64,000 nt of DNA. Source: Candidatus Zhuqueibacterota bacterium (GTDB lineage Bacteria; Zhuqueibacterota; Zhuqueibacteria; Oceanimicrobiales; Oceanimicrobiaceae). Where the stretch lies: contig JAJDAF010000050.1 of NCBI GenBank assembly GCA_029261995.1, positions 215,152 through 279,151 of the forward strand. Direction: 5' to 3'. Below the pieces are notes generated by a model. The model made no database searches, was not told the origin of the DNA, and worked only from the letters and a program-made list of their open reading frames with translations. The position numbers and the translations under genes are program-made. Positions 603-13,326 of the stretch are shown here, piece by piece (positions within the stretch are counted from its first letter, which is position 1; the number at the start of each line of letters is the position of its first letter).

Positions 603-722
603 GTCGCGGCGTGAACGTTTTCATGCGCGAAACCAACTGGCGTTGGCAGATGGATTCAACTGCTTGCCAGGTCGGCCGGATACCAGTTCCGGCATGTGCT
701 GTTTCACGAAACATGCGTTGAC

Positions 723-2690
723 ATGACATCTAAAGAAAACTTGTTTGGCAACATACTTAAGACGCTGAGCTGGGGCCTGCTTGCAGGACTGCTCTGGGGC
801 CTCTATGAGGCAAGCGTGCTGCTTCTGACGCAATATCGCGCATTGATTGGCCAGGACGCCAGTGGCATCTGGAATCTCTACTCAGCGGCCCTTTTGAATT
901 ATGGATTCTTCGGGCTGGTACTCGGCGGCGCCTCGTGCGCATACCTGACAGCCACGTGGTTGACCTTCAAGAAAACACGAGAAGACTTTGCTGCCGGCCG
1001 CTACTTTGTGTTGAGCATAGCCGTTCTGGTAATGGTGCTGTGGGCGGGAGTTTATGCAAACCGCTACCCGTTGGCGCGCATTCCGCTTTCACATCCCTTC
1101 TCGATTGGGGCAAGCCTGGCGATCATCGTGGCAGGGTTTGCGCTCCTTCAGATTTTGTACAGGACGGTAGGAGGGCGCAGCTCAAGTCCCCAAACGGGCC
1201 TCCTGAATTTAAAAACTGTCGGCAAAATGTTGGCGCCGCCGGTGGTGGTTCTGCTGGGTGGTCTGATTCTGCACAGCTTTAGCAGTCAAGAAACGGCCAC
1301 GGCCGAGACTGACCTGACTACCTCCGCTGGAAGCACAGTTGTTTCGCACCCAGATGCCGGAAACCTGGATGCTCCTCCGAACATCATTTTGATCACAGCC
1401 GAAACCCTGCGGGCCGACCACCTGCCGCTGTACGGTTACGACAAGCCGTTGAAGACGCCAAACATCGAAAAACTGGCCCAACAGGGTGTAACGTTCGAGA
1501 ACTATTTCACCAATTCCTCCTGGACAAGGGCATCGGTCACGTCGATCATGACCTCTTTGTTCCCGCAGCAGCACGGGGCCACGGGCCTGCACGTGACGCT
1601 GATGGACAGCGTCTTGACCCTGCCGAAAATTCTGGAGGCCCATGGTTACCACTCGGCTGCATTTCTCACCAACGTCAATTCTGTTTCAAAGGGCTTTGCG
1701 TTTTCCGAAGTCTACTATGATGAAATGATCGAAGCGTTCCGGAATCCGCTGGCGGTCTCGCCATTTTCACTCAAGCCATTCCTGGTACGGCGTCTGCTCG
1801 GAACGGAGAATCAGTTGTCTCAGGATTTCCCCTTCGTATTTCCGACGGAGTTTGTCAACGATTGGTACCTGGATGCGGCAAACGTCAATTCGTTCATCCA
1901 GAAGTGGTTGGTCACAGCTCCGGAGAAGCCGTTGTTCCTCCAGATTCACTATCTGGATCCGCACGAGCCGTACCTGCGTCACCCCTACGAGGCTGTACAA
2001 TTCAATCTGAAATCGGGGTGGACCGTTGACTCAATTGTTGAGCTTTATGACCAGGAAATCGAGTATCTCGATTCTGAGTTGGGCCGACTACAGAAAATTC
2101 TCGCAGCAGCCGGAAGACTACAAAACAGCCTGTTCATTTTCACTTCGGACCATGGCGAGGAATTTCTTGACCATGGTGGTTGGGGGCATGGCAACCACCT
2201 CTATGATGAAACCTTGAGGGTACCCCTGGTCATGCGCTTTCCGGATGGCAAATGGGCAGGTTCGCGCGTGGCCAGTCCGACCTCGAGTGTTGACCTGGCG
2301 CCGACCATTGTTGAAGCCGCCGGAGTGGATGCACCGCCAGACTTTGAAGGCCACAGCCTGACGCCGGTGATCACCGGAGCCGAGCAAGGTCATCGACTGA
2401 TCACTTCGCACCTTCTGGCGCCTTCGTTTGAAATGGCGTCTATCATGAAGGACGACATGAAGTTCATTTCCCGGACTGGACTCAATTCAGGCAAATATCT
2501 GTTCAACTTGGCGCAAGACCCAGGCGAACAGAAGAATCTGATTGAGCAGCACCCTGAGATCGCAGCCGAGCTTGAAGCCACACTTGCAATAGTCGATCAG
2601 AAGTTTAAGGCGGAGCAGCGTCAGGGCAAACAACTGAGCCTGACCGAAGAACAAAAGAAAAGATTGCGGGCGCTGGGCTACTTGAAGTAG
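723..2690 (+). CDS. membrane-anchored sulfatase-fold (alkaline phosphatase superfamily) hydrolase/transferase
   Basis: About 5 N-terminal hydrophobic helices, then NIILITAETLRADHL, SWTRASVTSIMTSLFPQQHG, HYLDPHEPY, YDQEIEYLD, FTSDHGEEFLDHGGWGHG, VDLAPTI; ends RLRALGYLK. ATG 723 preferred over GTG 696. Confidence 0.85.
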   Translation: MTSKENLFGNILKTLSWGLLAGLLWGLYEASVLLLTQYRALIGQDASGIWNLYSAALLNYGFFGLVLGGASCAYLTATWLTFKKTREDFAAGRYFVLSIAVLVMVLWAGVYANRYPLARIPLSHPFSIGASLAIIVAGFALLQILYRTVGGRSSSPQTGLLNLKTVGKMLAPPVVVLLGGLILHSFSSQETATAETDLTTSAGSTVVSHPDAGNLDAPPNIILITAETLRADHLPLYGYDKPLKTPNIEKLAQQGVTFENYFTNSSWTRASVTSIMTSLFPQQHGATGLHVTLMDSVLTLPKILEAHGYHSAAFLTNVNSVSKGFAFSEVYYDEMIEAFRNPLAVSPFSLKPFLVRRLLGTENQLSQDFPFVFPTEFVNDWYLDAANVNSFIQKWLVTAPEKPLFLQIHYLDPHEPYLRHPYEAVQFNLKSGWTVDSIVELYDQEIEYLDSELGRLQKILAAAGRLQNSLFIFTSDHGEEFLDHGGWGHGNHLYDETLRVPLVMRFPDGKWAGSRVASPTSSVDLAPTIVEAAGVDAPPDFEGHSLTPVITGAEQGHRLITSHLLAPSFEMASIMKDDMKFISRTGLNSGKYLFNLAQDPGEQKNLIEQHPEIAAELEATLAIVDQKFKAEQRQGKQLSLTEEQKKRLRALGYLK

Positions 2691-2823: not shown

Positions 2824-4635
2824 ATGGAACGGAGATGGAGAACTCAATGGATGACAGCGTGCAGCGCCGCGCTTCTGCTAGCCGCAAGCCTGACGCCGCT
2901 AACAACCGTGGTTGCTCAAGGCAAACACCCCTACCCCAGAATTGGGACATTCCACTTCTTCCGCGGCCAGGTACCGCCTGATTGGCATGCCCGAATGGAC
3001 CTTGTGGATATCAACAAAACCGACCCGGATATTCCGCGGGCGATCAAACGAAAAAATCCAAAAACCGTGGTGTTTTCAACAAGCGGTTGGACGGTCTGGA
3101 ACAGCAATAATCCGATTTCTGACACGGATATCAGCTTTCCGTCCGAGTGGTTTGCTCGTCGTGCTGATGGCTCGCCAATCGAGTTCGCTGGTAAGAAATT
3201 TCTGATCAATCTTTCAAATCACTGCCCGAAAGTCGATGGCAAGCGCTACAATGAACTGCTGCCAGACGTGCTCATTGACCGCGTAGATCTAACCGCGTTT
3301 GACGGCATTGCCAGCGACTGGCTCTGGCGCAAGCCGCATAACCAAACCGACATCGATCTCGACAACAACGGCCGCAACGATTACGACGAACACGGCAACG
3401 CTTGGGTTGAAGCGGAGTGGCGTGCCGGCGTGGAAACTCTGCTGCAGATTCTGCGCGGCAAGATGCCGCCCAATCGTTACGTCCTCGTCAACTCCGGACT
3501 GTTCCACCAGTATGGTTGGAACACCACCAACGGCCTGATTCTCGAAAACTACCGTGGCGTGCGCGGTTGGAACGGTTTCGAACGCAATTACTTCGGCTGG
3601 AGCGATACTTCACTGGAGCCGCGCATGATGATTTTCGACGTCATGCCGTCGCCAAAGGACCCGCGTATCAATGGCGAGCCGAAGGATTACTACACACACA
3701 TGCGCTTCATGCTGACCATCACACTCTTGGGAGAGGGCTATTTCAGCTATTCTGATTTTGAGGCCAGGGCGCTGCACCATTTCGACAAGTACTACGATGA
3801 ATATGATGTCGAGCTTGGCTGGGACCGCACCGGGCCACAAAAGTTGACCAATGGCTGCTGGGTTCGATTTTTCGATAAAGGCGTCTCCATCACCAATCCA
3901 TCTACTTCGACGACCAGGGTCAGTGATGGCGACTTGCGTGGTTTAAACGGCTACAACGGGCCTTACTACCGTTTTCTTGGGGGTCAGGATTCGCAGGTTA
4001 ACAACGGCCAGCAGTTCGATGGCATCGAGCTTTTTGGTGGCAAATTGGACGACGGCCTGATTGTCGGGGATGGCATCATTTTGTTGACCGAGCGCAAAAC
4101 CGTCATCGCGGATATCGTGGTGGACCAGCAAAACGCCGAGACCTCGCCCGGAAGCAAAAATGCGGACCTGCAGGGCGGCTGGACGGAAACCAATGATGTT
4201 GAAGACCCCTACAGTTTTCGCCAGGCCAAACACAACGGCTTATTTGGCGTCGCCTTTGCCAGTCCTGGCAGTGGCGGCAGCAAGGCGATCTATACTCCTG
4301 AAATTGGCATCGCCGGGGAGTACGACGTTTATGAGTGGCATGGCAAGCTCGAGGGGTTCAATATGGCGACCAACGTGCCGGTCAAAATCACCATTAACGG
4401 AGATGTGAAATTTAACCAGCGCATCGACCAGTCGCGCCAGTCCGGAAGCTGGAACCATCTCGGCAAATTCAGTTTTCCGGTTGGCGCTCGTTCTCGCATC
4501 GAGCTTTCAAATGACGCCAACGGTATGGTGGTAGCGGATGCCTTCAAGCTGGTTTCCGTGACTTCAGAGCAACCCGACAGAGATGTGACGGCGCCCACAA
4601 CGCCTTCCGGAGTGCGTGTCTCGAATGGCAATTAG
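2824..4635 (+). CDS. secreted putative glycoside hydrolase (GHL15-like) with golvesin/Xly-like C-terminal beta domain
   Basis: AGGAGG RBS at about 2813 and a signal peptide (MERRWRTQWMTACSAALLLAASLTPLTTVVAQ). Motifs FDGIASD, NGLILEN, MRFMLTITLLGEGYF, YYDEYDVELG, WVRFFDKGVSITNP resemble the GHL15 family. C-terminal YTPEIGIAGEYDVYEW...IDQSRQSGSWNHLGKFSF...VVADAFKL is golvesin-like. Assigned from recalled motifs. Confidence 0.65.
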   Translation: MERRWRTQWMTACSAALLLAASLTPLTTVVAQGKHPYPRIGTFHFFRGQVPPDWHARMDLVDINKTDPDIPRAIKRKNPKTVVFSTSGWTVWNSNNPISDTDISFPSEWFARRADGSPIEFAGKKFLINLSNHCPKVDGKRYNELLPDVLIDRVDLTAFDGIASDWLWRKPHNQTDIDLDNNGRNDYDEHGNAWVEAEWRAGVETLLQILRGKMPPNRYVLVNSGLFHQYGWNTTNGLILENYRGVRGWNGFERNYFGWSDTSLEPRMMIFDVMPSPKDPRINGEPKDYYTHMRFMLTITLLGEGYFSYSDFEARALHHFDKYYDEYDVELGWDRTGPQKLTNGCWVRFFDKGVSITNPSTSTTRVSDGDLRGLNGYNGPYYRFLGGQDSQVNNGQQFDGIELFGGKLDDGLIVGDGIILLTERKTVIADIVVDQQNAETSPGSKNADLQGGWTETNDVEDPYSFRQAKHNGLFGVAFASPGSGGSKAIYTPEIGIAGEYDVYEWHGKLEGFNMATNVPVKITINGDVKFNQRIDQSRQSGSWNHLGKFSFPVGARSRIELSNDANGMVVADAFKLVSVTSEQPDRDVTAPTTPSGVRVSNGN

Positions 4636-4696
4636 TGCAATGATTGCGAGCCAGATGAAGAGAGTATTGTGAGAGATAGAAAGGATTCGATTCTGA

Positions 4697-6613
4697 ATGC
4701 AGCAAGATAATACAAGTTTTGGCGCCTGGGTGAAGGCATTTTCCCGCAGCGCACTGTGGGCTGGTGGAATTGTTGGCGGGCTGGAGGCTCTGATTGTCGT
4801 GTCTCGAATCCTCAGCAGCAATGCTGTCGAGCTGGCGCTGCTTCTGCAAATTGTGATTTTTGTAAGTTTCGCGATAGCGCTGTTTGCGGGGCTCTTGCTC
4901 ATCTTCAATCTCATCTTCCTGCCCGTGCTCTATTTGCCGCTGAAGATGGTTGTCTCTCGATTTCAGAAGATCGGGCCATCGCAATTGAGTTGGGTGCTCA
5001 ATTTTCTTACAGCGACCTTTTTCTGTTTCCTGTTCTGGGCACACTACAATTCCGGCCGCTCGCTGCTCTCTGGCAAATCACTGCTTTATTCGGGTTTGGC
5101 GTTTGTCGGTGCTTTGGTCCTGGCGGAAATCGCAGCCCGACTCATGCATGGAGCTTCTGACAAACTCAAGTTGTGGCGCAAAGGAAAGCCAAGACCTTTT
5201 GTGGTTGTCTGGCTTCTGGTTCTCGGCGTGGCGCTGTTCATGAACTCGAATGGCATGGCTGGCGTTAGAAGCGCCAAGCCGAATGTGCTCTTGCTTATCA
5301 TCGATACACTGCGGGCTGACCGGCTCGGTTGCTACGGCTATGACAAGCCCACCTCGCCATCCATCGACCGGGTGGCCAGTGAAAGCGTGCTTTTTGAACA
5401 AGCTTACGTGTCGTGGGCCTCGTCTTTGCCGTCGCATTCGTCCATCATGACCTCCATGCAGCCCTACCACCACGGCGCTTTTCCAAACGGGAAATCTCTG
5501 AACGCCAAGCTTTTGACGCTGCCGAAGATTCTGCACGAGTACGGGTATAAGAATGCGGGCTTTGTTTCGAATACACTGGTTGGCAATCAGTACAATTTTG
5601 AGCTTGGGTACGACACTTTCACCGACCTGACCAAGTTTGACTACCACGACACCAGTTGGCAAATGTGGGTACGCACACTCGATACGATTCGGTTGTTCGA
5701 CAAAATCACTGACCGTGATTTGTTCACCGATTTGGCGCTTTCGTGGATTGAAAAACATCGCCACCGACCCTTCTTTCTCTGGGGGCAATGGCTACAGCCG
5801 CATGCACCGTACGAGCCGCCGGCCAGGCATCTGGCCAAATTCGAAGAGAGTTATTCCGGAATCGCCGACGGTAGCCTCAAGCAGATTTTCGACATCCGGC
5901 AGGGTAACGTGACCTTGAGTGATTCCGACCAACAACACTATTCTGCGCTTTACGATGGCGAGGTTGCTTGGTCAGACGAGCAAATCGGCGCCGTGTATGA
6001 TAAGCTGACCGAACTCGAGTTGCTCGAGAACTCGATCGTCATTATTACTTCTGACCACGGCGAAAACATGTTGGAACACGGACTGGAATATGGCCACGCC
6101 GGGGTCAACGAATCGAGCGTGCGGATCCCTTTGCTCGTACGACTGCCGGGCGGTAAGCGGATGCAGTTGGCACACGTCGTGCAGAGCATCGACATCGCCC
6201 CGACTGTACTCGACCTTCTGGACATCCCCATGCCTGACCAGTTTCACGGCAGGAGCGTTGTCCCACTGGTCGAGGGGCAGAAGGTAGAGTGGCCGAACGA
6301 AGCGTTCAGTGTCGGGTTTTGGAAGAAGCGCAATTTTTTCGGTCTGCGCAATGGGGATTGGAAGCTGATTCTGGATGTGCGGCAGCAAAATCAGACCTGG
6401 GCGCTATACCATCTACCCACAGACCCGCACGAGCGAAAGAATCGTTACGAAACTGAGCCCGGGACGGCGACCAAGATGAAGCACGCCATGGAGATTTGGC
6501 TTGCGAACGAGTTTGAGAATCTCGATCTCGTATACAAGCCCGGCGGTTTTTTTGAAGAAGATTTTGATGAAAAGACAATTCAGCGGCTGCGAACGCTTGG
6601 ATACATCAAGTAA
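4697..6613 (+). CDS. membrane-anchored sulfatase-fold hydrolase/transferase
   Basis: About 5 N-terminal TM segments; NVLLLIIDTLRADRLGCYG, SSLPSHSSIMTS, PHAPYEPP, YDGEVAWSD, ITSDHGE, SIDIAPTVLD; ends RLRTLGYIK. Confidence 0.88.
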   Translation: MQQDNTSFGAWVKAFSRSALWAGGIVGGLEALIVVSRILSSNAVELALLLQIVIFVSFAIALFAGLLLIFNLIFLPVLYLPLKMVVSRFQKIGPSQLSWVLNFLTATFFCFLFWAHYNSGRSLLSGKSLLYSGLAFVGALVLAEIAARLMHGASDKLKLWRKGKPRPFVVVWLLVLGVALFMNSNGMAGVRSAKPNVLLLIIDTLRADRLGCYGYDKPTSPSIDRVASESVLFEQAYVSWASSLPSHSSIMTSMQPYHHGAFPNGKSLNAKLLTLPKILHEYGYKNAGFVSNTLVGNQYNFELGYDTFTDLTKFDYHDTSWQMWVRTLDTIRLFDKITDRDLFTDLALSWIEKHRHRPFFLWGQWLQPHAPYEPPARHLAKFEESYSGIADGSLKQIFDIRQGNVTLSDSDQQHYSALYDGEVAWSDEQIGAVYDKLTELELLENSIVIITSDHGENMLEHGLEYGHAGVNESSVRIPLLVRLPGGKRMQLAHVVQSIDIAPTVLDLLDIPMPDQFHGRSVVPLVEGQKVEWPNEAFSVGFWKKRNFFGLRNGDWKLILDVRQQNQTWALYHLPTDPHERKNRYETEPGTATKMKHAMEIWLANEFENLDLVYKPGGFFEEDFDEKTIQRLRTLGYIK

Positions 6614-6663
6614 TGAAAGTTGCGCCCGCGCCCGCTGAAAAATGAATTGCCTGAGGAATTAGT

Positions 6664-8466
6664 GTGAACTATCTTAGACGTATAAGTGTGAATGTTGTTT
6701 TAGCCGCGACCCTTTTAACCGCCGCCAGCTCGATGGCTCAGCCAAATGGTCTTGGCGCTGACGGCAAAACCTTTGAACAGCGCCGTGACGATTGGCAAGC
6801 CCAGGTGCCAAGTCCCAGCGGCTCCATCAGCATGGTGGACCGCCGCAACTATTTGTTCACCTGGCTTGACGCCGGCGATCTTGATGGCGTGGTCTCCGAG
6901 ACCATCGAGAATTTTACGCGCGGCTATTGGCTGAACGACATCCGGGCGCAGCACGGTTTCGCTGCCGCGCTTCTCCTGAAATACGGTTCCAAAGGACGTG
7001 GCGTGCTTGGCGCGGGAGACGAGGATAACATCACGTCCAAGTACGACGACTGGATTTCGAGCAGCGGCACGTTTGGTGATTTAAATCCGAACAAACAGGT
7101 GTTTGCGATGGTGGGCGTTTATCTTTACACTACGAATTTTGACCGCAATCTCAAATTTCCCAACTTCGGGTACCCGGTAACGCTGAACCCACCGGTGCCC
7201 GGGCATTACAAGAACCACTGGCCATCATTCAGTTACAACGGCCACAGCTACGAATACGGCGGAGGCCCTTACAACGCCCGCCAGCTTGCGAAAGACTGGC
7301 TGGAGTGGGTGATGGATGGTCAGTATGTCCGCAAGCGGTCGCCGCGCGGTAATCGCGAGTTCGATTCCATCGTGTATGCCCGCGCTTACCCCGCGGCCAT
7401 GGCGATCCTGGCTGATCTGGCAGACGATCCCAAGCTGGCGCGCAAAGCGAAAATGTGCGCGGATTTGGCCCATCTCGACGCGGTGCTCGATTTTTCCGCC
7501 AACGCCTGGGGCGGCGCCATGGGGCGCAACGACTACCGGAAGAATTCTCGCTCGCCAATTTATCCTTTTCACCATTTTTGGGGAATGGGAGACAATCTTG
7601 ACGGTGACGAAGAAAAATGGAATGTGACCGCAAATTACTACCTCGACTACCGGGTGCCCGACGTTGCCGTGGATGCCGGTGTGCTGGAGGATGAGCCGGA
7701 CGACTATTGGCATTTCCACCAGGAGTACAACGAAGGCTATCTCAATGGAGAAGGCAAGGGCAAGTGGAATTGGGTGACAAAGTTCTACAATCTCGGCTCA
7801 AATGTCGGTCAGCCGCGCAATGGCTGGCAGCTTAGCGTCAAGGGCAGAGGACGGACCGGTTTTATCAGACTTTGGGTAAATGAGAGAGCCACCGAGCCCG
7901 ACGACAACCAGGAAACAAACTACATTGGCAGCAAGGGCAATCAGTTTCGCAACGCGTTGTTTGCGAACATCGGCAGCGGACCAAAACTTTGGGAAACTAC
8001 CACCGACGCAAGCTGGGAAATTGTCGATAAGGACGGAATCTGGAGTTTTCGCAAGCTGGGAAGAGTTATGGTCGCCGTGGGTATCGGCGCCTCCACCGCC
8101 TCGGTTGAGGTTGCCATTTCCGGTGTGGATTACCCGGACTGGAATGCTTTCAAGCAGGCCATTAAACAGAACGCGCTGCTGACCGCGGACTCCTATACGA
8201 CCTCCCGGGGCGCCGTAATTGGTAAGAAAGACTACTGTGGACTCAACGAGCCTGGCGACATCGACTTCCCGTTTCCGCGCATTCAAACCGTGGACCACCG
8301 CGGCAATTCGATTGTGAGCTGGCAGAACAATGTCATGACCGTTGCCCGGCATGGAAAGAAAATCGTTTACAACTTCAACAACTGGACTTACTCGGAGGAT
8401 GACTCCGAAGGGGATTTTGATGCGCCGCAGGTGCCGGTGGGCGTCAAGGTGCGGAGCGCGGACTAA
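6664..8466 (+). CDS. secreted hypothetical protein (600 aa)
   Basis: GAGGA RBS, GTG start, signal peptide (MNYLRRISVNVVLAATLLTAASSMAQ). Trp/Tyr/Asp-rich; helical middle (NREFDSIVYARAY...GGAMGRNDY) and beta-rich C-terminal half. No family recognised with confidence. Confidence 0.75.
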   Translation: MNYLRRISVNVVLAATLLTAASSMAQPNGLGADGKTFEQRRDDWQAQVPSPSGSISMVDRRNYLFTWLDAGDLDGVVSETIENFTRGYWLNDIRAQHGFAAALLLKYGSKGRGVLGAGDEDNITSKYDDWISSSGTFGDLNPNKQVFAMVGVYLYTTNFDRNLKFPNFGYPVTLNPPVPGHYKNHWPSFSYNGHSYEYGGGPYNARQLAKDWLEWVMDGQYVRKRSPRGNREFDSIVYARAYPAAMAILADLADDPKLARKAKMCADLAHLDAVLDFSANAWGGAMGRNDYRKNSRSPIYPFHHFWGMGDNLDGDEEKWNVTANYYLDYRVPDVAVDAGVLEDEPDDYWHFHQEYNEGYLNGEGKGKWNWVTKFYNLGSNVGQPRNGWQLSVKGRGRTGFIRLWVNERATEPDDNQETNYIGSKGNQFRNALFANIGSGPKLWETTTDASWEIVDKDGIWSFRKLGRVMVAVGIGASTASVEVAISGVDYPDWNAFKQAIKQNALLTADSYTTSRGAVIGKKDYCGLNEPGDIDFPFPRIQTVDHRGNSIVSWQNNVMTVARHGKKIVYNFNNWTYSEDDSEGDFDAPQVPVGVKVRSAD

Positions 8467-8568
8467 CTTGAACCGCAGATCGAATTCAGACTCGATGCCG
8501 ACGTGGTTCGACCGACAGAGTCCGGATGAAAACTCAACGACATCTTATCAAGATATTCAGGAACTTCA

Positions 8569-10713
8569 ATGAAACGACCACTTTCATCTTTTCTGGGGAC
8601 AGCCACGCTGTTTGGCGTGTGCGCCGCGCTCAGCCTGTTCTTGTCAGAATGGATTCTTGGCTCCTTCTACGCTGCAATCAATTATCGCACATTTCTGTTC
8701 TACCTTGCCCTTTATCTGCCGGCCGGTGCGGTCGGCGGTGCAGTGCTTGGGCTGTTCTTGAAGCTCTTCTCAAGTGTGCTAAGCTCCCGCTGGATAGGCG
8801 TAAATCGTCCATCCTTCTTGCCGGCCGCGGTGATGTTTTCGTTTTTCTACATCTACGGTTTCTACTACATCAATGAAAAACTGACTGCCCGCGTTGGCGC
8901 ACTGGCTCCCTTGAGTCTCGCCGCGGATCTGGCGTTTCTGTTGCTGTCTTTCCTGGTATTTCGCCTGGTTGTGGCGCTACCTGAACGAAAAGGTAGCGCA
9001 GTCCTGGGCTTTCTTGAAGTCGGTTTCTTGCCGCTGATTCTTCTTGTTGGAGTCAATTTGCGCTTTTTTATCTGGCAGCCGCCGCACACCCAAATACCCG
9101 AATTGGTCTTTGGCACAATTGCGTTTGGCCTGGCGGGTCTGGCGGGCGCCGCTTTGGTCTGGCTTCATGCAAAGATCTTGACCGCTTCAGCATCCACGGG
9201 TGCGCGATTCGCCAGTGTTGCGGTAATGGCAGCAATTGTGTTTGCCATTCTTGTTTGGAGCGGCACGCCATCGACCGCCAGTTTCGACCGCACTGACGAT
9301 GAGTTTTTGGCGCAGGAAGCCGTGCAAAAGCCAAAGAACATCATCTGGATTGTCACCGACACGGCACGCCGTGACCATGTTTCGGTGTACGGCGGCCAGC
9401 GACAGACAACCCCGAGCCTTGAGCAATTTGCACAGGATGCCCTGGTTTTTGATAACGCCATCTCGGCGGCGCCCTGGACTCTGCCTTCGCACGCCTCAAT
9501 GTTCACGGGCATGTTTCCTTCGAAACACGGCGCACATTTTGTTGGTGACGCCATGTTCTCGACACCGCTGGTGCCGGGCAATCTGACGATCGGTGAAATC
9601 CTTTCGGCGCACGGCTACAACACCGCTGGCATCGCAGCGAACAATGCCGGATTGTCGCGACAGCTTGGATGCCATCAGGGATTTCAGTACTATTTTGATG
9701 GCCGCCCGCTTGTCTTCAGTATGTTCTGGGGCAAGGTGCTGCTCCAGCTTTCGGATGATTTTCGCATCGACGAGTTGTGGGTGAATGAGGTCTGCCTGGC
9801 AACAGAAATGGAACCCATCGTCAACAACTGGCTCGATGACAATGCTGATGACGGACCCTTCTTCCTGTTCGTGAATTTGATGGAGCCGCACGGCGGCATC
9901 GCCTTTGTGCCCGAGCCCTATGACTCCCTGTACGGCTTCGATCGCCAACGCCAGCAAGAGGTCTTCAAAGACTTCGATGCAGACAAAGTAGTGTTTTACC
10001 AGGCGGAGGTGACGGACGAGCACCGGGCATTTTGGAATGGCTACGTTCAGCGGAAGATTACTTTCATGGATGCCTATCTCGGCCGTCTGTTCGCCAGGTT
10101 AAAAGAGAAGGGACTCTATGATGACAGCATGGTCATCGTAAATTCCGACCACGGCGAGCTTTTTGGCGAACACAACTCATTCGGCCATAACACGGATTTG
10201 TACAATGAGTTGATTCGAGTGCCGTTGATGGTGAAGTACCCGCAGGCCGCCAAAACCGGCCGTGATGCAAAACTGGTGCAGACAGTTGACCTCATGCCGG
10301 AAATTCTGGCCCAGCTAGGCATCGAGATCCCCGCTAATGTTCAGGGCCAGCCGATTGACCAGGCGAACCATCCGGTGATTGCCGAGCTTTTTCAGCAACA
10401 ACACAATGCGCATGCCAAACGCAGTCCCGGCAGATACTACCGTGACCTGCGAGCGATCTTTGGCAACGTTGCGGGCGATTCACTGAAATACATCTGGGCT
10501 TCAAATGACAAGGCCGAACTCTTTGACATGGCAAACGACCCGGATGAGCTAACCGACGTTCTGCAGCAGAGGCCGCTGGCGGCTGACTCCCTGCGTGCGA
10601 GACTTGGCCGATGGGCCAGTAGCTTCAAACCGATGGAGACCAAGGGCCAGACTCGGAATATCGACAAGAAGGAATTGGAGAAGCGTTTGCGCTCACTGGG
10701 GTATATCAAGTAG
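8569..10713 (+). CDS. membrane-anchored sulfatase-fold hydrolase/transferase
   Basis: About 7 N-terminal TM segments; NIIWIVTDTARRDHVSVYG, APWTLPSHASMFTG, NLMEPHG, NSDHGELFGEH..FGH, TVDLMPEIL; ends RLRSLGYIK. Confidence 0.88.
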   Translation: MKRPLSSFLGTATLFGVCAALSLFLSEWILGSFYAAINYRTFLFYLALYLPAGAVGGAVLGLFLKLFSSVLSSRWIGVNRPSFLPAAVMFSFFYIYGFYYINEKLTARVGALAPLSLAADLAFLLLSFLVFRLVVALPERKGSAVLGFLEVGFLPLILLVGVNLRFFIWQPPHTQIPELVFGTIAFGLAGLAGAALVWLHAKILTASASTGARFASVAVMAAIVFAILVWSGTPSTASFDRTDDEFLAQEAVQKPKNIIWIVTDTARRDHVSVYGGQRQTTPSLEQFAQDALVFDNAISAAPWTLPSHASMFTGMFPSKHGAHFVGDAMFSTPLVPGNLTIGEILSAHGYNTAGIAANNAGLSRQLGCHQGFQYYFDGRPLVFSMFWGKVLLQLSDDFRIDELWVNEVCLATEMEPIVNNWLDDNADDGPFFLFVNLMEPHGGIAFVPEPYDSLYGFDRQRQQEVFKDFDADKVVFYQAEVTDEHRAFWNGYVQRKITFMDAYLGRLFARLKEKGLYDDSMVIVNSDHGELFGEHNSFGHNTDLYNELIRVPLMVKYPQAAKTGRDAKLVQTVDLMPEILAQLGIEIPANVQGQPIDQANHPVIAELFQQQHNAHAKRSPGRYYRDLRAIFGNVAGDSLKYIWASNDKAELFDMANDPDELTDVLQQRPLAADSLRARLGRWASSFKPMETKGQTRNIDKKELEKRLRSLGYIK

Positions 10714-10758
10714 GTCGTTTCTCACCGCCGTTGATTGCAGGTTTCGCCAGCAAAATTT

Positions 10759-13326
10759 ATGGACGAATCAGGTCTCACCACAAAACTCAAACACGCCATC
10801 CATCTCGGCTGTTGGCTAGGTTTGATCGGCGGCGTAATACGCGTCGTCATTCTTCTTTTGCAAAACAATTACTTCACGCAGGAAATAGCCACGTTCGGCG
10901 TAAACTATCTGCAAGTTTCGGTCAACCATTTTCTCCTACTCGGTTTGGCATTCGGAATTCTGTTAGGGATCTGCTGGAGGTTGTTTCGTAGCCTGGAGGG
11001 ATTCCTGCTTGCCGGATTGCTTGTTGCGTTACCAATTCTGCCCGTCGCCAATTTTCTAAACAGGAATATCTTCCCCGGCCGTTTTCACCCAATCAGCCTG
11101 GCAGGCAACGCCGCCATATTGGTGATTATGATTGCCCTGGCAATCTGGCTGTTTCTACGCTGGTTCAAGCCGGTCCGTTTTCTGCACCGACTCTACAGCA
11201 AATGGACATTTGCTGCGGCATTCGTGCTCGTTGGATGTGTAAATCTCTTCTACCTGCTGCAAATGCCTGAAGCCCGTTTGCAGGCTGCATCCCCTGAACC
11301 TGACGGTTTGGCCGGGTTGTTCAGAACGGTGTCCGCATCAACTTCTGGCGGAGTGAAGACCGGTTTTTCCATGTCTGACATAAAGAATCACTTGACGAAA
11401 ACAGCAGAAGACAGACTCCCGTTGCTGGATGAACGCATCGCTCGCAAGGATACCGCGGACATCATGGCCGAGGCCGACGCCTCAATTGCCCGGACCTTTG
11501 ATCTTCTAAACATCGCACACACATTTCCGGGTGAGATTGAGTGGCGCCAGAATCCGACCAAAGACCGGGAATGGCTGCTTGCCCTCAATCGGATGGACTG
11601 GATTTGGAGCGTGGCCGTCGCTTACCGAATGACGCAGGATTCCCAATATGCGCTCGCCTTTGACCGCATCATGCGCAGTTGGTTCGAGCAGAATCCGGTG
11701 CCGCGTTGGAAAAACGAGCGCGACAACGTCTGGCGCCTGATCGAATCCAGCGCCCGCATGACCGACAGTTGGATTGAGGCATTTTTTATTTTCTATAATT
11801 GCGATCAAGTCAGCGAGGAAGTCAAGTGGCGCATGCTGGCCTCGTTTCATGACCACGCGCAATTCCTGGCACACTTTCGTTCTCCCAGGAGGAATCATCT
11901 GCTGCAGGAGACGTATGGCTTGCTAGCGGTCGCTGCCGCATTTCCTGAGTTCAAAATGTCAGAAACCTGGATCGAAATCGCCAGACTACGGCTTGACCGG
12001 GCCATGCGCGAGGACGTTTATCCGGACGGCGGTTACACGGAGGGGTCGATTTACTACCACCGCTTCGCCATTCGCATTCTGCAGGAGATTACCGATTTCG
12101 CGGCGGCGTACGATGTTCGCCTTTCCGACTTCTTCTACCAGCAGCTCGAGAAGATGTACAGTTTTCTCATGCACACTTCCCGTCCCGACGGCGTCATGCC
12201 GCAGATGAATGACGGCTTCCACGCCAAGAATCTCCGCATCATGTTTGACCGGCCGGCCGAGTTTTTTTCTCGGCAGGACTTCGAGTACTTTGCGAGCGAC
12301 GGCTACTCGGGTGTGCGGCCTGAATCACCGTCGGTAGCATTTCCCTATTCTGGCATTTACGTCATGCGCAGCGGGTGGGCGCGCCAGGCGCGCTACATGA
12401 TTACAGATGCCGGGCCGTTCGGTTCATCGCACGGCCACGAAGACAAGCTGAGTTTTGAGCTGTTCGCGTTTGGCAGGCCATTTATCGTGGAAAGCGGCAC
12501 TTACACGTACGTGCGAAACAAGTGGCGGAAGTACTTCACCAGTTCATTCGCGCATAACACGATTGTTGTGGACGGCCGTAGCCAGATTCGCTTTCCGGAT
12601 CAGGAGCTTTGGGTGAATGCGCCGCCCGAAACCCTGGCCAATCAATGGATTTCGACGGACGCATTCGACTACCTTGAGGCGCACTACGATGGCGGCTACG
12701 GCAGCGTTAAGGAAGATGTACTCAGCGGAATTGTCCACACCCGGCGCTGGCTGTTTGTAAAACCGGACTACTGGATCATTTGGGACGTTGTCGAGGGAGA
12801 GGGGGAGCATAAGTTGGAACAACTATTTCACTTCTGGCATGAAGCGAACGTCGAGATTCTGGGCGAGAACGAGATTCGGGCCAGCTACTCGGGTGGACCA
12901 GCCATGTCCGTCCATGTTCTTGGCGAGAAACAGGGCCGCTTGACTGCCGTGAGGGGACAAGATAGTCCGGTGCAGGGCTGGGTTTCTTCGGAGTACGGCA
13001 AGAAAATGCCGGCATCCAGCGTTCGCGTCACCCGCCAGGGCGTTCTGCCGATTTCCTTTGTCACTATTCTGGCGCCATCGGAACTTGGACAACCGGATGA
13101 ACGTGTAGAATCTGTTCAAGTCACGGCCGGCGGGCAGTCTACTCCCCAAACAGAAGCAATTGCGGTTAAGCTCACATTTGAGAATCAAGTCGATCACATT
13201 TTGATTGCGCCAAATCTTCGAGAAGAAAAATCCTTCGGGGAGTTTGCAACCGGAGCAGAGTTGTTCGCGGTTCGGGAGAAAGGCGCAACTGCTACTCAAC
13301 TGTTCAGTCGGGAGGATGTGAAATGA
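10759..13326 (+). CDS. membrane-anchored heparinase II/III family (polysaccharide lyase-like) protein
   Basis: About 4-5 N-terminal TM helices, then LNRMDW, NHLLQETYGL, YPDGGYTEGSIYYH, HGHEDKLSFEL, HNTIVVDG, HTRRWLFV, typical of Hepar_II_III_N plus Hepar_II_III. ATG 10759 preferred over TTG 10735. Confidence 0.85.
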   Translation: MDESGLTTKLKHAIHLGCWLGLIGGVIRVVILLLQNNYFTQEIATFGVNYLQVSVNHFLLLGLAFGILLGICWRLFRSLEGFLLAGLLVALPILPVANFLNRNIFPGRFHPISLAGNAAILVIMIALAIWLFLRWFKPVRFLHRLYSKWTFAAAFVLVGCVNLFYLLQMPEARLQAASPEPDGLAGLFRTVSASTSGGVKTGFSMSDIKNHLTKTAEDRLPLLDERIARKDTADIMAEADASIARTFDLLNIAHTFPGEIEWRQNPTKDREWLLALNRMDWIWSVAVAYRMTQDSQYALAFDRIMRSWFEQNPVPRWKNERDNVWRLIESSARMTDSWIEAFFIFYNCDQVSEEVKWRMLASFHDHAQFLAHFRSPRRNHLLQETYGLLAVAAAFPEFKMSETWIEIARLRLDRAMREDVYPDGGYTEGSIYYHRFAIRILQEITDFAAAYDVRLSDFFYQQLEKMYSFLMHTSRPDGVMPQMNDGFHAKNLRIMFDRPAEFFSRQDFEYFASDGYSGVRPESPSVAFPYSGIYVMRSGWARQARYMITDAGPFGSSHGHEDKLSFELFAFGRPFIVESGTYTYVRNKWRKYFTSSFAHNTIVVDGRSQIRFPDQELWVNAPPETLANQWISTDAFDYLEAHYDGGYGSVKEDVLSGIVHTRRWLFVKPDYWIIWDVVEGEGEHKLEQLFHFWHEANVEILGENEIRASYSGGPAMSVHVLGEKQGRLTAVRGQDSPVQGWVSSEYGKKMPASSVRVTRQGVLPISFVTILAPSELGQPDERVESVQVTAGGQSTPQTEAIAVKLTFENQVDHILIAPNLREEKSFGEFATGAELFAVREKGATATQLFSREDVK

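Follow-up and report, generated by a model that had tools for sequence, protein, structure and literature searches.

Why two secreted proteins with no recognizable relationship should end in the same short peptide is the question raised by the window analyzed here, a stretch of 64,000 nucleotides from Candidatus Zhuqueibacterota bacterium (contig JAJDAF010000050.1). The proteins, referred to as ProtA and ProtB, and their C-terminal tails are located as follows.

2824..4635, + strand: ProtA, a secreted enzyme of 603 residues (defined from the open reading frame (ORF) list, Pfam, an AlphaFold2 (AF2) model and 87 homologues), made up of a signal peptide (about residues 1–33), a GHL15 domain (residues 107–353), a Golvesin_C β-sandwich (residues 446–577), a linker, and the tail.
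4582..4632, + strand: tail A, DVTAPTTPSGVRVSNGN, consisting of D-x-T-A-P-x-x-P-x-G-V-R-V and 4 further residues, with the stop codon at 4633–4635.
6664..8466, + strand: ProtB, a secreted protein of 600 residues from a family without a name (defined from the ORF list and 41 homologues), with a signal peptide at about residues 1–25.
8413..8463, + strand: tail B, DFDAPQVPVGVKVRSAD, consisting of the same 13-residue motif and the same 4 residues before the stop.

The tail probably acts as a plug-in tag, of a kind not described before, by which enzymes dock on surface-anchored fibronectin type III (FN3) domains lacking a strand A of their own (A-less FN3 domains). The C termini of the two proteins read ...PDRDVTAPTTPSGVRVSNGN in ProtA and ...EGDFDAPQVPVGVKVRSAD in ProtB and have in common D-x-x-A-P-x-x-P-x-G-V-[RK]-V, four residues, and the stop. 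Pfam recognizes two domains in ProtA, the glycoside-hydrolase-like GHL15 (PF14885, 1.4e-10) and Golvesin_C (PF25275, 1.6e-19); ProtB has no match in Pfam or NCBIfam, and similarity between the two proteins is absent by BLASTP (best E = 2). Both signal peptides are of the Sec type. That of ProtA starts at ATG 2824, which is the likely start because orthologues begin close to it; an alternative start, TTG at 2734, lies 30 codons 5′. The original prediction, made from the DNA letters, was that two unrelated secreted proteins share a 13-residue tail, that neither has the YPNPFN C-terminal domain (CTD), and that the tail resembles the first strand of an FN3 domain and nothing more of it. It is borne out in these respects: Pfam gives no match to a type IX secretion system (T9SS) CTD (PF18962, PF13860, and CHU_C profiles), to dockerin (PF00404), or to fn3 (PF00041) in either protein, the tail being 13 + 4 residues in length. 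The next genes begin 62 and 103 nt 3′ of ProtA and ProtB, leaving no space for a hidden FN3 domain, and orthologues stop at the same place, so that an FN3 domain continuing behind the stop is ruled out. In the AF2 model of ProtA (67 sequences), for which the mean predicted local distance difference test (pLDDT) score is 93.2, residues 579–603 have pLDDT values of 45–55 and no secondary structure, indicating that the tail does not pack in cis, and cis packing of the ProtA tail was rejected for this reason.

The tail extends well beyond these two proteins. A hidden Markov model (HMM) made from the tails of ProtA homologues was run on all six-frame ORFs of the 7.18-Mb genome, and among ORFs of at least 250 residues it gave 9 matches, 8 of them at most 8 residues from the stop as against 1.6% expected (binomial p = 4e-14), which agrees with the enrichment at C termini implied by the original prediction; the lone internal match marks the beginning of a real FN3 domain. 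When weaker cases are counted, the genome has about 10 signal-peptide proteins with the tail: two β-propeller phytases, a purple-acid-phosphatase-like enzyme, alginate-lyase-like, β-helix, heparinase-like, and DUF2271 proteins, a 118-residue FN3 protein, ProtA, and ProtB. At least six different folds precede the tail in this genome. Its consensus is D-x-T-[AP]-P-x-P-P-x-[GN]-V-[RK]-V, and the 1–5 mostly polar residues between motif and stop vary in length and sequence. The tail is also found at the C terminus in about 57 of the 87 homologues of ProtA, from 78% down to about 30% identity (labeled, where a label is given, KSB1, Calditrichaeota, Phycisphaeraceae, or "bacterium"), and in about 21 of the 41 homologues of ProtB, and it is seen in KSB1-like, Phycisphaerae, Desulfobacterota, Nitrospirota, and Rokubacteria proteins. 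No description of it was found in Pfam, NCBIfam, the PDB, or the full-text literature searched. The tail is very likely a conserved, functional, and obligately C-terminal module and, whatever its partner, one that is uncatalogued and missed by annotation pipelines.

Carriers at two other places in the genome should be mentioned. At C11:104478-109905 (− strand), three adjacent secreted phosphate-releasing enzymes, two β-propeller phytases with CarboxypepD_reg and a purple-acid-phosphatase-like metallophosphatase with Big_1, each end in the tail, and the trio looks like a phosphate-scavenging cluster sharing the tag. At C58:208330-210763 (− strand), a DUF4962/heparinase II/III-like protein has a degenerate tail, ...EDTVSPLAPTGVKATQD, in which S-P-L-A-P replaces [AP]-P-x-x-P; this is perhaps a weaker member of the set or one that is diverging.

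Comparison of homologues indicates the kind of function that is involved. Dockerin repeats replace the tail in about five homologues of the ProtA family and three of the ProtB family (as at the corresponding site of P0035, P0099, and P0114), and SLH domains replace it in about six and about 15, respectively. In the ProtA family, a T9SS CTD (P0079), a transmembrane (TM) helix (P0074), or a GGCGC tail (P0043) can stand in its place, none of these three being seen among the ProtB family. No other comparison argues more strongly for an attachment or docking function than this occupation of the tail position by attachment modules in both families, and we consider it likely that the tail serves as a docking or anchoring tag. 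The suggestion of a short C-terminal sorting or anchoring signal in the original prediction thus has comparative support as regards anchoring or docking, given the dockerin, SLH, T9SS CTD, and TM helix that swap in, but none as regards sorting of the classical sortase or exosortase type, since the tail has no hydrophobic segment.

As judged from its sequence, the tail represents an FN3 linker and strand A without the rest of the domain behind them. Like the linker and strand A of FN3 (PF00041; "DTTAPSAPTGLTA"), it starts with D-T-T-[AP]-P-x-x-P and has alternating inward-facing hydrophobic residues, but FN3 is a complete seven-strand β-sandwich of about 85–90 residues, whereas the tail represents the first strand only and is followed by a stop 1–5 residues on. 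An A-less FN3 domain alone matches the Pfam fn3 profile from position 13 or 14 to position 83. When the ProtA tail is joined to it, the match is extended from positions 14–83 to 2–83 with a gain of 7.4 bits; the tail of ProtB gives a match to positions 4–83 and 4.5 bits, that of P0129, a protein discussed below, gives 3.4 bits, and shuffled tails in the same concatenation test give 0–0.9 bits. The tail therefore covers positions 2–13 of the profile, i.e. those that are absent from the A-less FN3. It is, however, distinct from the A strands of intact domains, as can be seen when it is set against 528 A strands that are covalently linked within tandem arrays of the relevant FN3 subfamily and have the consensus D-T-T-[AP]-P-[AS]-[AV]-P-T-G-L-[TS]-A. 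Positions 11–13 are V-[RK]-V in the tails as opposed to L-[TS]-A in the linked strands. Position 11 is V or I in the tails (10/10 in this genome) but L in 64% and V or I in 12% of the linked strands, and position 13 is V or I in the tails but A in 57% of the linked strands. At position 12, R or K is found in 70% of the ProtA family, 44% of the ProtB family, 67% of the small FN3 proteins, and 8/10 tails of this genome (over the tails, R makes up 37% and K 33%), compared with 6% of the linked strands.

Candidates for a complementary partner are present in the same genome. A scan with PF00041 gave 8 matches, five of which start at profile position 1–4 or are weak and internal; the other three start at profile position 12–13, directly behind a signal peptide, and belong to the following proteins.

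C23:77777-78472, − strand: acceptor candidate with signal peptide, A-less FN3, and a T9SS CTD of FlgD_ig/CHU_C type.
C22:134181-135770, − strand: acceptor candidate with signal peptide, A-less FN3, three Big_5 (immunoglobulin, Ig) domains, and a T9SS CTD.
C33:400072-400425, + strand: acceptor candidate P0129, with signal peptide, A-less FN3, and the tail.

The subfamily to which all three belong has the signature SWDxNxExDLAGY...YYFAVTAYDxSGNESGFSNEV and no other strong members in the genome. The C23 and C22 proteins end in FlgD_ig/CHU_C/Por_Secre_tail CTDs, and the presence of a T9SS is indicated by a SprA homologue in the genome. All three adaptors have orthologues in two related genomes with the tail-bearing ProtA/ProtB cassette. 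The strand A motif P-x-x-P-x-x-h-x-h, sought within the 28 residues before the conserved Trp, occurs in none of 100 small database homologues, most of which pass from a signal peptide, or from a lipoprotein Cys and a Gly/Ser linker, straight into strand B. Their C termini carry a dockerin (dozens), a T9SS CTD, a Gly-Cys or TM tail, the tail itself, or nothing. A signal peptide followed by strand B is also the N-terminal arrangement of 72 proteins from GTDB genomes (KSB1, Desulfobacterota, Nitrospirota, Acidobacteriota, Methylomirabilota, and other phyla), with the same range of anchors, and in giant tandem arrays strand A is missing from the first copy only. AF2 and Foldseek assign the A-less subfamily an FN3 fold with six core strands. 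A sequence search of the PDB found no solved structure closely related to this subfamily.

Several variants of these proteins were encountered. In P0135, P0139, P0144, P0147, P0191, P0208, P0222, and P0237, the tail runs on into a strand-turn-strand of 10–25 residues, e.g. ...PPTGLRQYEIIINMNSGMVTIKSG. Such extended tails occur in some small proteins with a signal peptide and A-less FN3, and the donor element may here take the form of a hairpin. In L008, L014, L019, L021, L023, L013, L030, and L052, from Desulfobacterota and relatives, A-less FN3 proteins have Gly-Cys C termini, in the form of poly-Gly and CFI(Q/T/K)(T/S)AGF or of GGGCFI and a TM helix, a sorting-type tail that recurs on the same N-terminal module. 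L001, a 16.5-kb Logan contig, encodes at 1313–1651 a protein of 112 residues with signal peptide, A-less FN3, and tail, adjoining a Laminin_G_3 protein; the contig has many small genes and matches to VRR_NUC and a DNA polymerase thumb, and its phage-like look implies that mobile elements may also use the module. In L002, a 100-kb contig, the region 8001–13314 includes an adaptor of 170 residues with A-less FN3 and dockerin, which lies 4 kb from a cohesin-domain protein and from a second protein with signal peptide and A-less FN3 (556 residues). This arrangement suggests layered docking, from FN3 tip to dockerin to cohesin.

The A-less domains differ from their complete counterparts at a residue that would be expected to face the tail. 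An Asp directly follows the strand B Trp in 13/24 (54%) of the strand-less first copies but in only 85/786 (11%) of the internal copies of the same array proteins; the corresponding figure in small adaptors is 75%, and all three acceptors of this genome have W-D. In human FNfn10, the hydrogen bonds between strands A and B are centered on Arg6 and Asp23, and Asp7 and Glu9 of strand A cluster in space with Asp23, the residue after Trp22 (PMC1950483). Alignment through the fn3 profile equates tail position 12 with Glu9, a neighbor of Asp23, so that the Arg or Lys of the tail would adjoin the acceptor Asp. This juxtaposition is a prediction for A-B pairing in trans that is based on homology with FNfn10. 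P0129 has both halves in one polypeptide, and residues 109–114 of its tail (SVRVQI) are modeled by AF2 as a β-strand with pLDDT 65–69, whereas the equivalent residues of ProtA are coil. The array match extends from strand B to strand A of the next domain, and P0129 therefore corresponds to one repeat in a permuted register, for which closure in cis and strand exchange in trans are both conceivable. Covariation between the residue after Trp and tail position 12 was examined by eye in proteins with both halves, among which informative cases are few.

These observations can be brought together in a model in which β-strand complementation is the most likely mechanism. A portable Pro-rich linker and specialized strand A, carried by Sec-exported enzymes and without structure of its own there, would slot in, antiparallel, beside the uncovered strand B of an FN3 domain from which strand A is missing. 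The acceptor FN3 would lie at the distal tip, right behind the signal peptide, of an adaptor or surface protein held by its C-terminal anchor. The putative acceptors in this genome would be C23:77777-78472(−), C22:134181-135770(−), and C33:400072-400425(+), and the pairing is predicted to include a salt bridge from R/K12 of the tail to the Asp immediately C-terminal to the strand B Trp of the acceptor. Enzymes without CTDs, such as ProtA and ProtB, would thereby be tethered non-covalently and might hitch-hike through the T9SS together with the adaptor. The adaptor would be anchored by a T9SS CTD here and by a dockerin, Gly-Cys or TM tails, or more FN3 elsewhere, and proteins with both halves may form donor-strand-exchanged chains. 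The conservation of the tail, its strictly C-terminal place, its exchange for known anchors, the occurrence and domain make-up of the strand-less FN3 proteins, the profile fit, and the reciprocal residue specialization are observed; the mutual binding of tail and A-less FN3, and its location, are what we infer. Docking by strand complementation onto A-less FN3 domains is the best explanation available, with an even chance or slightly less of being correct. The wider picture of a natural split-FN3 "tag and catcher" present across many phyla, with lineage-specific adaptor anchors, a T9SS ride for CTD-less enzymes, and donor-strand-exchanged chains, is offered tentatively.

The model resembles several known systems. 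In donor-strand complementation and exchange, as found in chaperone-usher pili and Bacteroidia type V pili, and in the complementation of minor pilins by the C-terminal β-strand of PilC/PilY1 (PMC12918778), an Ig-like fold minus one edge strand is completed by the terminal strand of another polypeptide. An acceptor minus an edge strand is present here as well, in the form of the three FN3 domains and of the homologues, 0/100 of which have the strand A motif, and P0129, L022, L033, and L035 carry both halves and could in principle polymerize head to tail. However, the donors of pili are fibre subunits and the missing strand is G, whereas here the donors are unrelated soluble enzymes, the fold is FN3, and the strand is A; binding is here only proposed, and the chaperone/usher or processing protease of the pilus systems has no evident counterpart, none being seen around the tail genes or the acceptor genes. 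Dockerins, like the tail, are C-terminal modules common to diverse secreted enzymes acting on polysaccharides and phosphates; they hold the exact position of the tail in ProtA and ProtB homologues, and adaptors combining A-less FN3 with dockerin exist. A dockerin, however, is a duplicated Ca-binding loop-helix of about 60–70 residues with no sequence relation to the 13-residue tail, for which β-strand addition is proposed. The signals of the LPXTG/sortase, PEP-CTERM/exosortase, GlyGly-CTERM/rhombosortase, and T9SS CTD systems are also obligately C-terminal and occur on unrelated exported proteins, and some (the CTD of P0079, the TM helix of P0074, and the GGCGC tail of P0043) interchange with the tail in homologues. 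Sortase-type signals have a TM helix and a basic cluster, both missing from the tail, for which no cognate sorting enzyme has been identified, and the T9SS CTD is a C-terminal β-sandwich of 70–100 residues, a fold that the tail does not have. A further parallel is with the engineered split-domain pair SpyTag/SpyCatcher (CnaB2), in which a 13-residue strand peptide rebuilds an Ig-like domain in trans through an invariant reactive Lys/Asp pair and a CnaB-type acceptor; the proposed tail system is natural and presumably non-covalent, and its candidate acceptor is FN3. Isopeptide chemistry of the SpyTag type was rejected for the tail because R is as frequent as K at position 12 and the acceptor fold is FN3. 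That the N-terminal strand A of FN3 can be exchanged between chains is illustrated by a strand-swapped FN3 scaffold (PDB 4m6a).

A number of observations weigh against strand complementation or limit what can be drawn from the comparisons. Among the genes within 10 kb of 80 A-less FN3 genes (1.2 Mb of GTDB loci), none for a tail-bearing enzyme was found; tails in these loci were confined to four of the FN3 proteins (the tail HMM detected those of L022, L033, and L035, and that of L016 was recognized by eye). Acceptor and tail genes are likewise dispersed in this genome, with no adjacency, and no linkage of tail and A-less FN3 genes was seen in L001 and L002 on inspection by hand. There are about 10 donors and 3 acceptors in the genome. 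It should also be noted that the p values for the differences between tails and linked strands (1e-5 to 1e-28) and for the Asp-after-Trp contrast between first and internal copies (4.5e-7) count related sequences without correction for phylogeny, and that the confidence in the tail strand of P0129 is only moderate. The N-terminal FN3 without strand A might also be a six-strand variant that is sufficient in itself and has some other binding partner. Furthermore, the tail proteins have Sec signals only, so that in a diderm an encounter with CTD adaptors would be limited to the periplasm or would depend on co-export, and surface display of Sec-only enzymes through T9SS co-export is speculative. 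The suggestion in the original prediction of a donor strand that docks on an Ig/FN3 fold is favored by the candidate A-less acceptors, the profile fit, and the reciprocal charge specialization, and finds no support in linkage of tail and acceptor genes.

The other functions that might be assigned to the tail account for less of the evidence. It is strictly C-terminal, conserved, found on Sec-exported proteins, and takes the place of known sorting domains, all of which would be expected of a sorting or secretion signal read by a dedicated machine (a processing protease, a transpeptidase, or an outer-membrane exporter) with no FN3 acceptor. Such a signal is unlikely, however, since the motif is followed by only 1–5 polar residues with no hydrophobic helix or basic cluster, and a single lineage-specific machine would not readily account for its spread over KSB1-like, Phycisphaerae, Desulfobacterota, Nitrospirota, and Rokubacteria proteins. 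The original prediction proposed a search for a co-occurring protease or transpeptidase; no conserved neighboring protease or sortase is seen in the window or in L083 and L084, where the gene order around ProtA and ProtB is kept. A sorting signal would also leave the mimicry of FN3 strand A unexplained. Known CTERM and sorting models were discarded as identities for the tail, no NCBIfam or Pfam model covering it. The O-glycosylation sequon of Bacteroidota, D-[ST]-[AILVMT], was set aside because only about one-third of the tails have S or T at position 2; recognition of the free C terminus by PDZ or Ctp-type proteins is unlikely because the 1–5 residues after the motif vary in length and sequence; and a Pro-Pro endopeptidase site was considered (PMC8610288), but that family is confined to Firmicutes. 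Binding of the tail, through its basic residue and polyproline, to a non-protein component of the envelope (the anionic or sulfated exopolysaccharide of the locus, lipopolysaccharide, or a wall polymer) would be in keeping with the conserved R/K at position 12, the location of ProtA and ProtB within a polysaccharide biosynthesis and sulfatase cassette, and the replacement of the tail in homologues by SLH, whose ligands are wall polymers. A single basic residue among 13 would nevertheless make a weak polyanion binder, the phytase and phosphatase carriers have no relation to the polysaccharide locus, and the alternating V-x-V pattern and exact fit to the fn3 profile point to strand pairing between proteins, so that this explanation is improbable.

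The tail might alternatively need no partner and act in cis as a structural cap, a spacer, or an end resistant to exoproteases. Pro-rich ends do resist carboxypeptidases, and the preceding domain is always a β-sandwich or β-helix, but the tail of ProtA is unstructured and detached in the AF2 model, which, together with the presence of at least six different folds before the tail, makes a structural role in cis unlikely. A spacer would not need G-V-[RK]-V to be so well conserved or so different from ordinary A strands, anchoring modules replace the tail in homologues, and little likelihood can be attached to a cis role of any of these kinds. Lastly, the tail could be a functionless relic of an FN3 domain truncated just after strand A. 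This agrees with the structure of ProtA homologues of 930–950 residues, in which a complete FN3 starts at the position of the tail in the 600-residue class; these long homologues continue, however, with another domain and then end in the tail again, and most homologues stop at the same point, so that simple truncation, raised as an alternative in the original prediction, does not describe the family. The tail is retained from 78% to about 30% identity, in two unrelated families and about eight other proteins of one genome; its signature is unlike that of ordinary A strands, and its distance from the stop is fixed at 1–5 residues. A relic is therefore strongly disfavored and very improbable.

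If the tail is a donor strand, it would be a minimal docking device, five times shorter than a dockerin, by which bacteria of several phyla would display or co-export many different enzymes. Strand complementation would then have a use outside fibres, and the retention on cells of numerous "soluble" secreted hydrolases of uncultured lineages would be explained. Thousands of "hypothetical proteins" consisting of a signal peptide and FN3 would become adaptors, and a natural peptide/FN3 pair would be available for protein engineering.

ProtA and ProtB are encoded in a cassette with the order methyltransferase, membrane sulfatase(s), ProtA, sulfatase, ProtB, sulfatase, and membrane heparinase II/III, in which three sulfatase-fold paralogues interleave with the two tail-bearing proteins. 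The genes in the window are the following.

696..2690, + strand: first of three membrane-anchored sulfatase-fold paralogues, with a polytopic N terminus and PF00884.
4697..6613, + strand: second membrane-anchored sulfatase-fold paralogue, directly 3′ of ProtA.
8569..10713, + strand: third membrane-anchored sulfatase-fold paralogue, directly 3′ of ProtB.
10735..13326, + strand: membrane-anchored heparinase II/III-like lyase (PF16889, PF07940), the last gene of the cassette.

The synteny is kept in L083 and L084, where the ProtA and ProtB orthologues retain their tails. In L084 the cassette is surrounded by a Wzx-type flippase, glycosyltransferases, and a carbamoyltransferase, a setting that indicates a locus for polysaccharide synthesis and modification. 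The cassette also has a second conserved C-terminal peptide: the sulfatase-fold paralogues at 696–2690, 4697–6613, and 8569–10713 all end in ...LR(A/T/S)LGY(L/I)K. The C termini of their orthologues in two other genomes conform to this pattern, and that of a DUF2061 protein in L084 reads ...LKELGYL.

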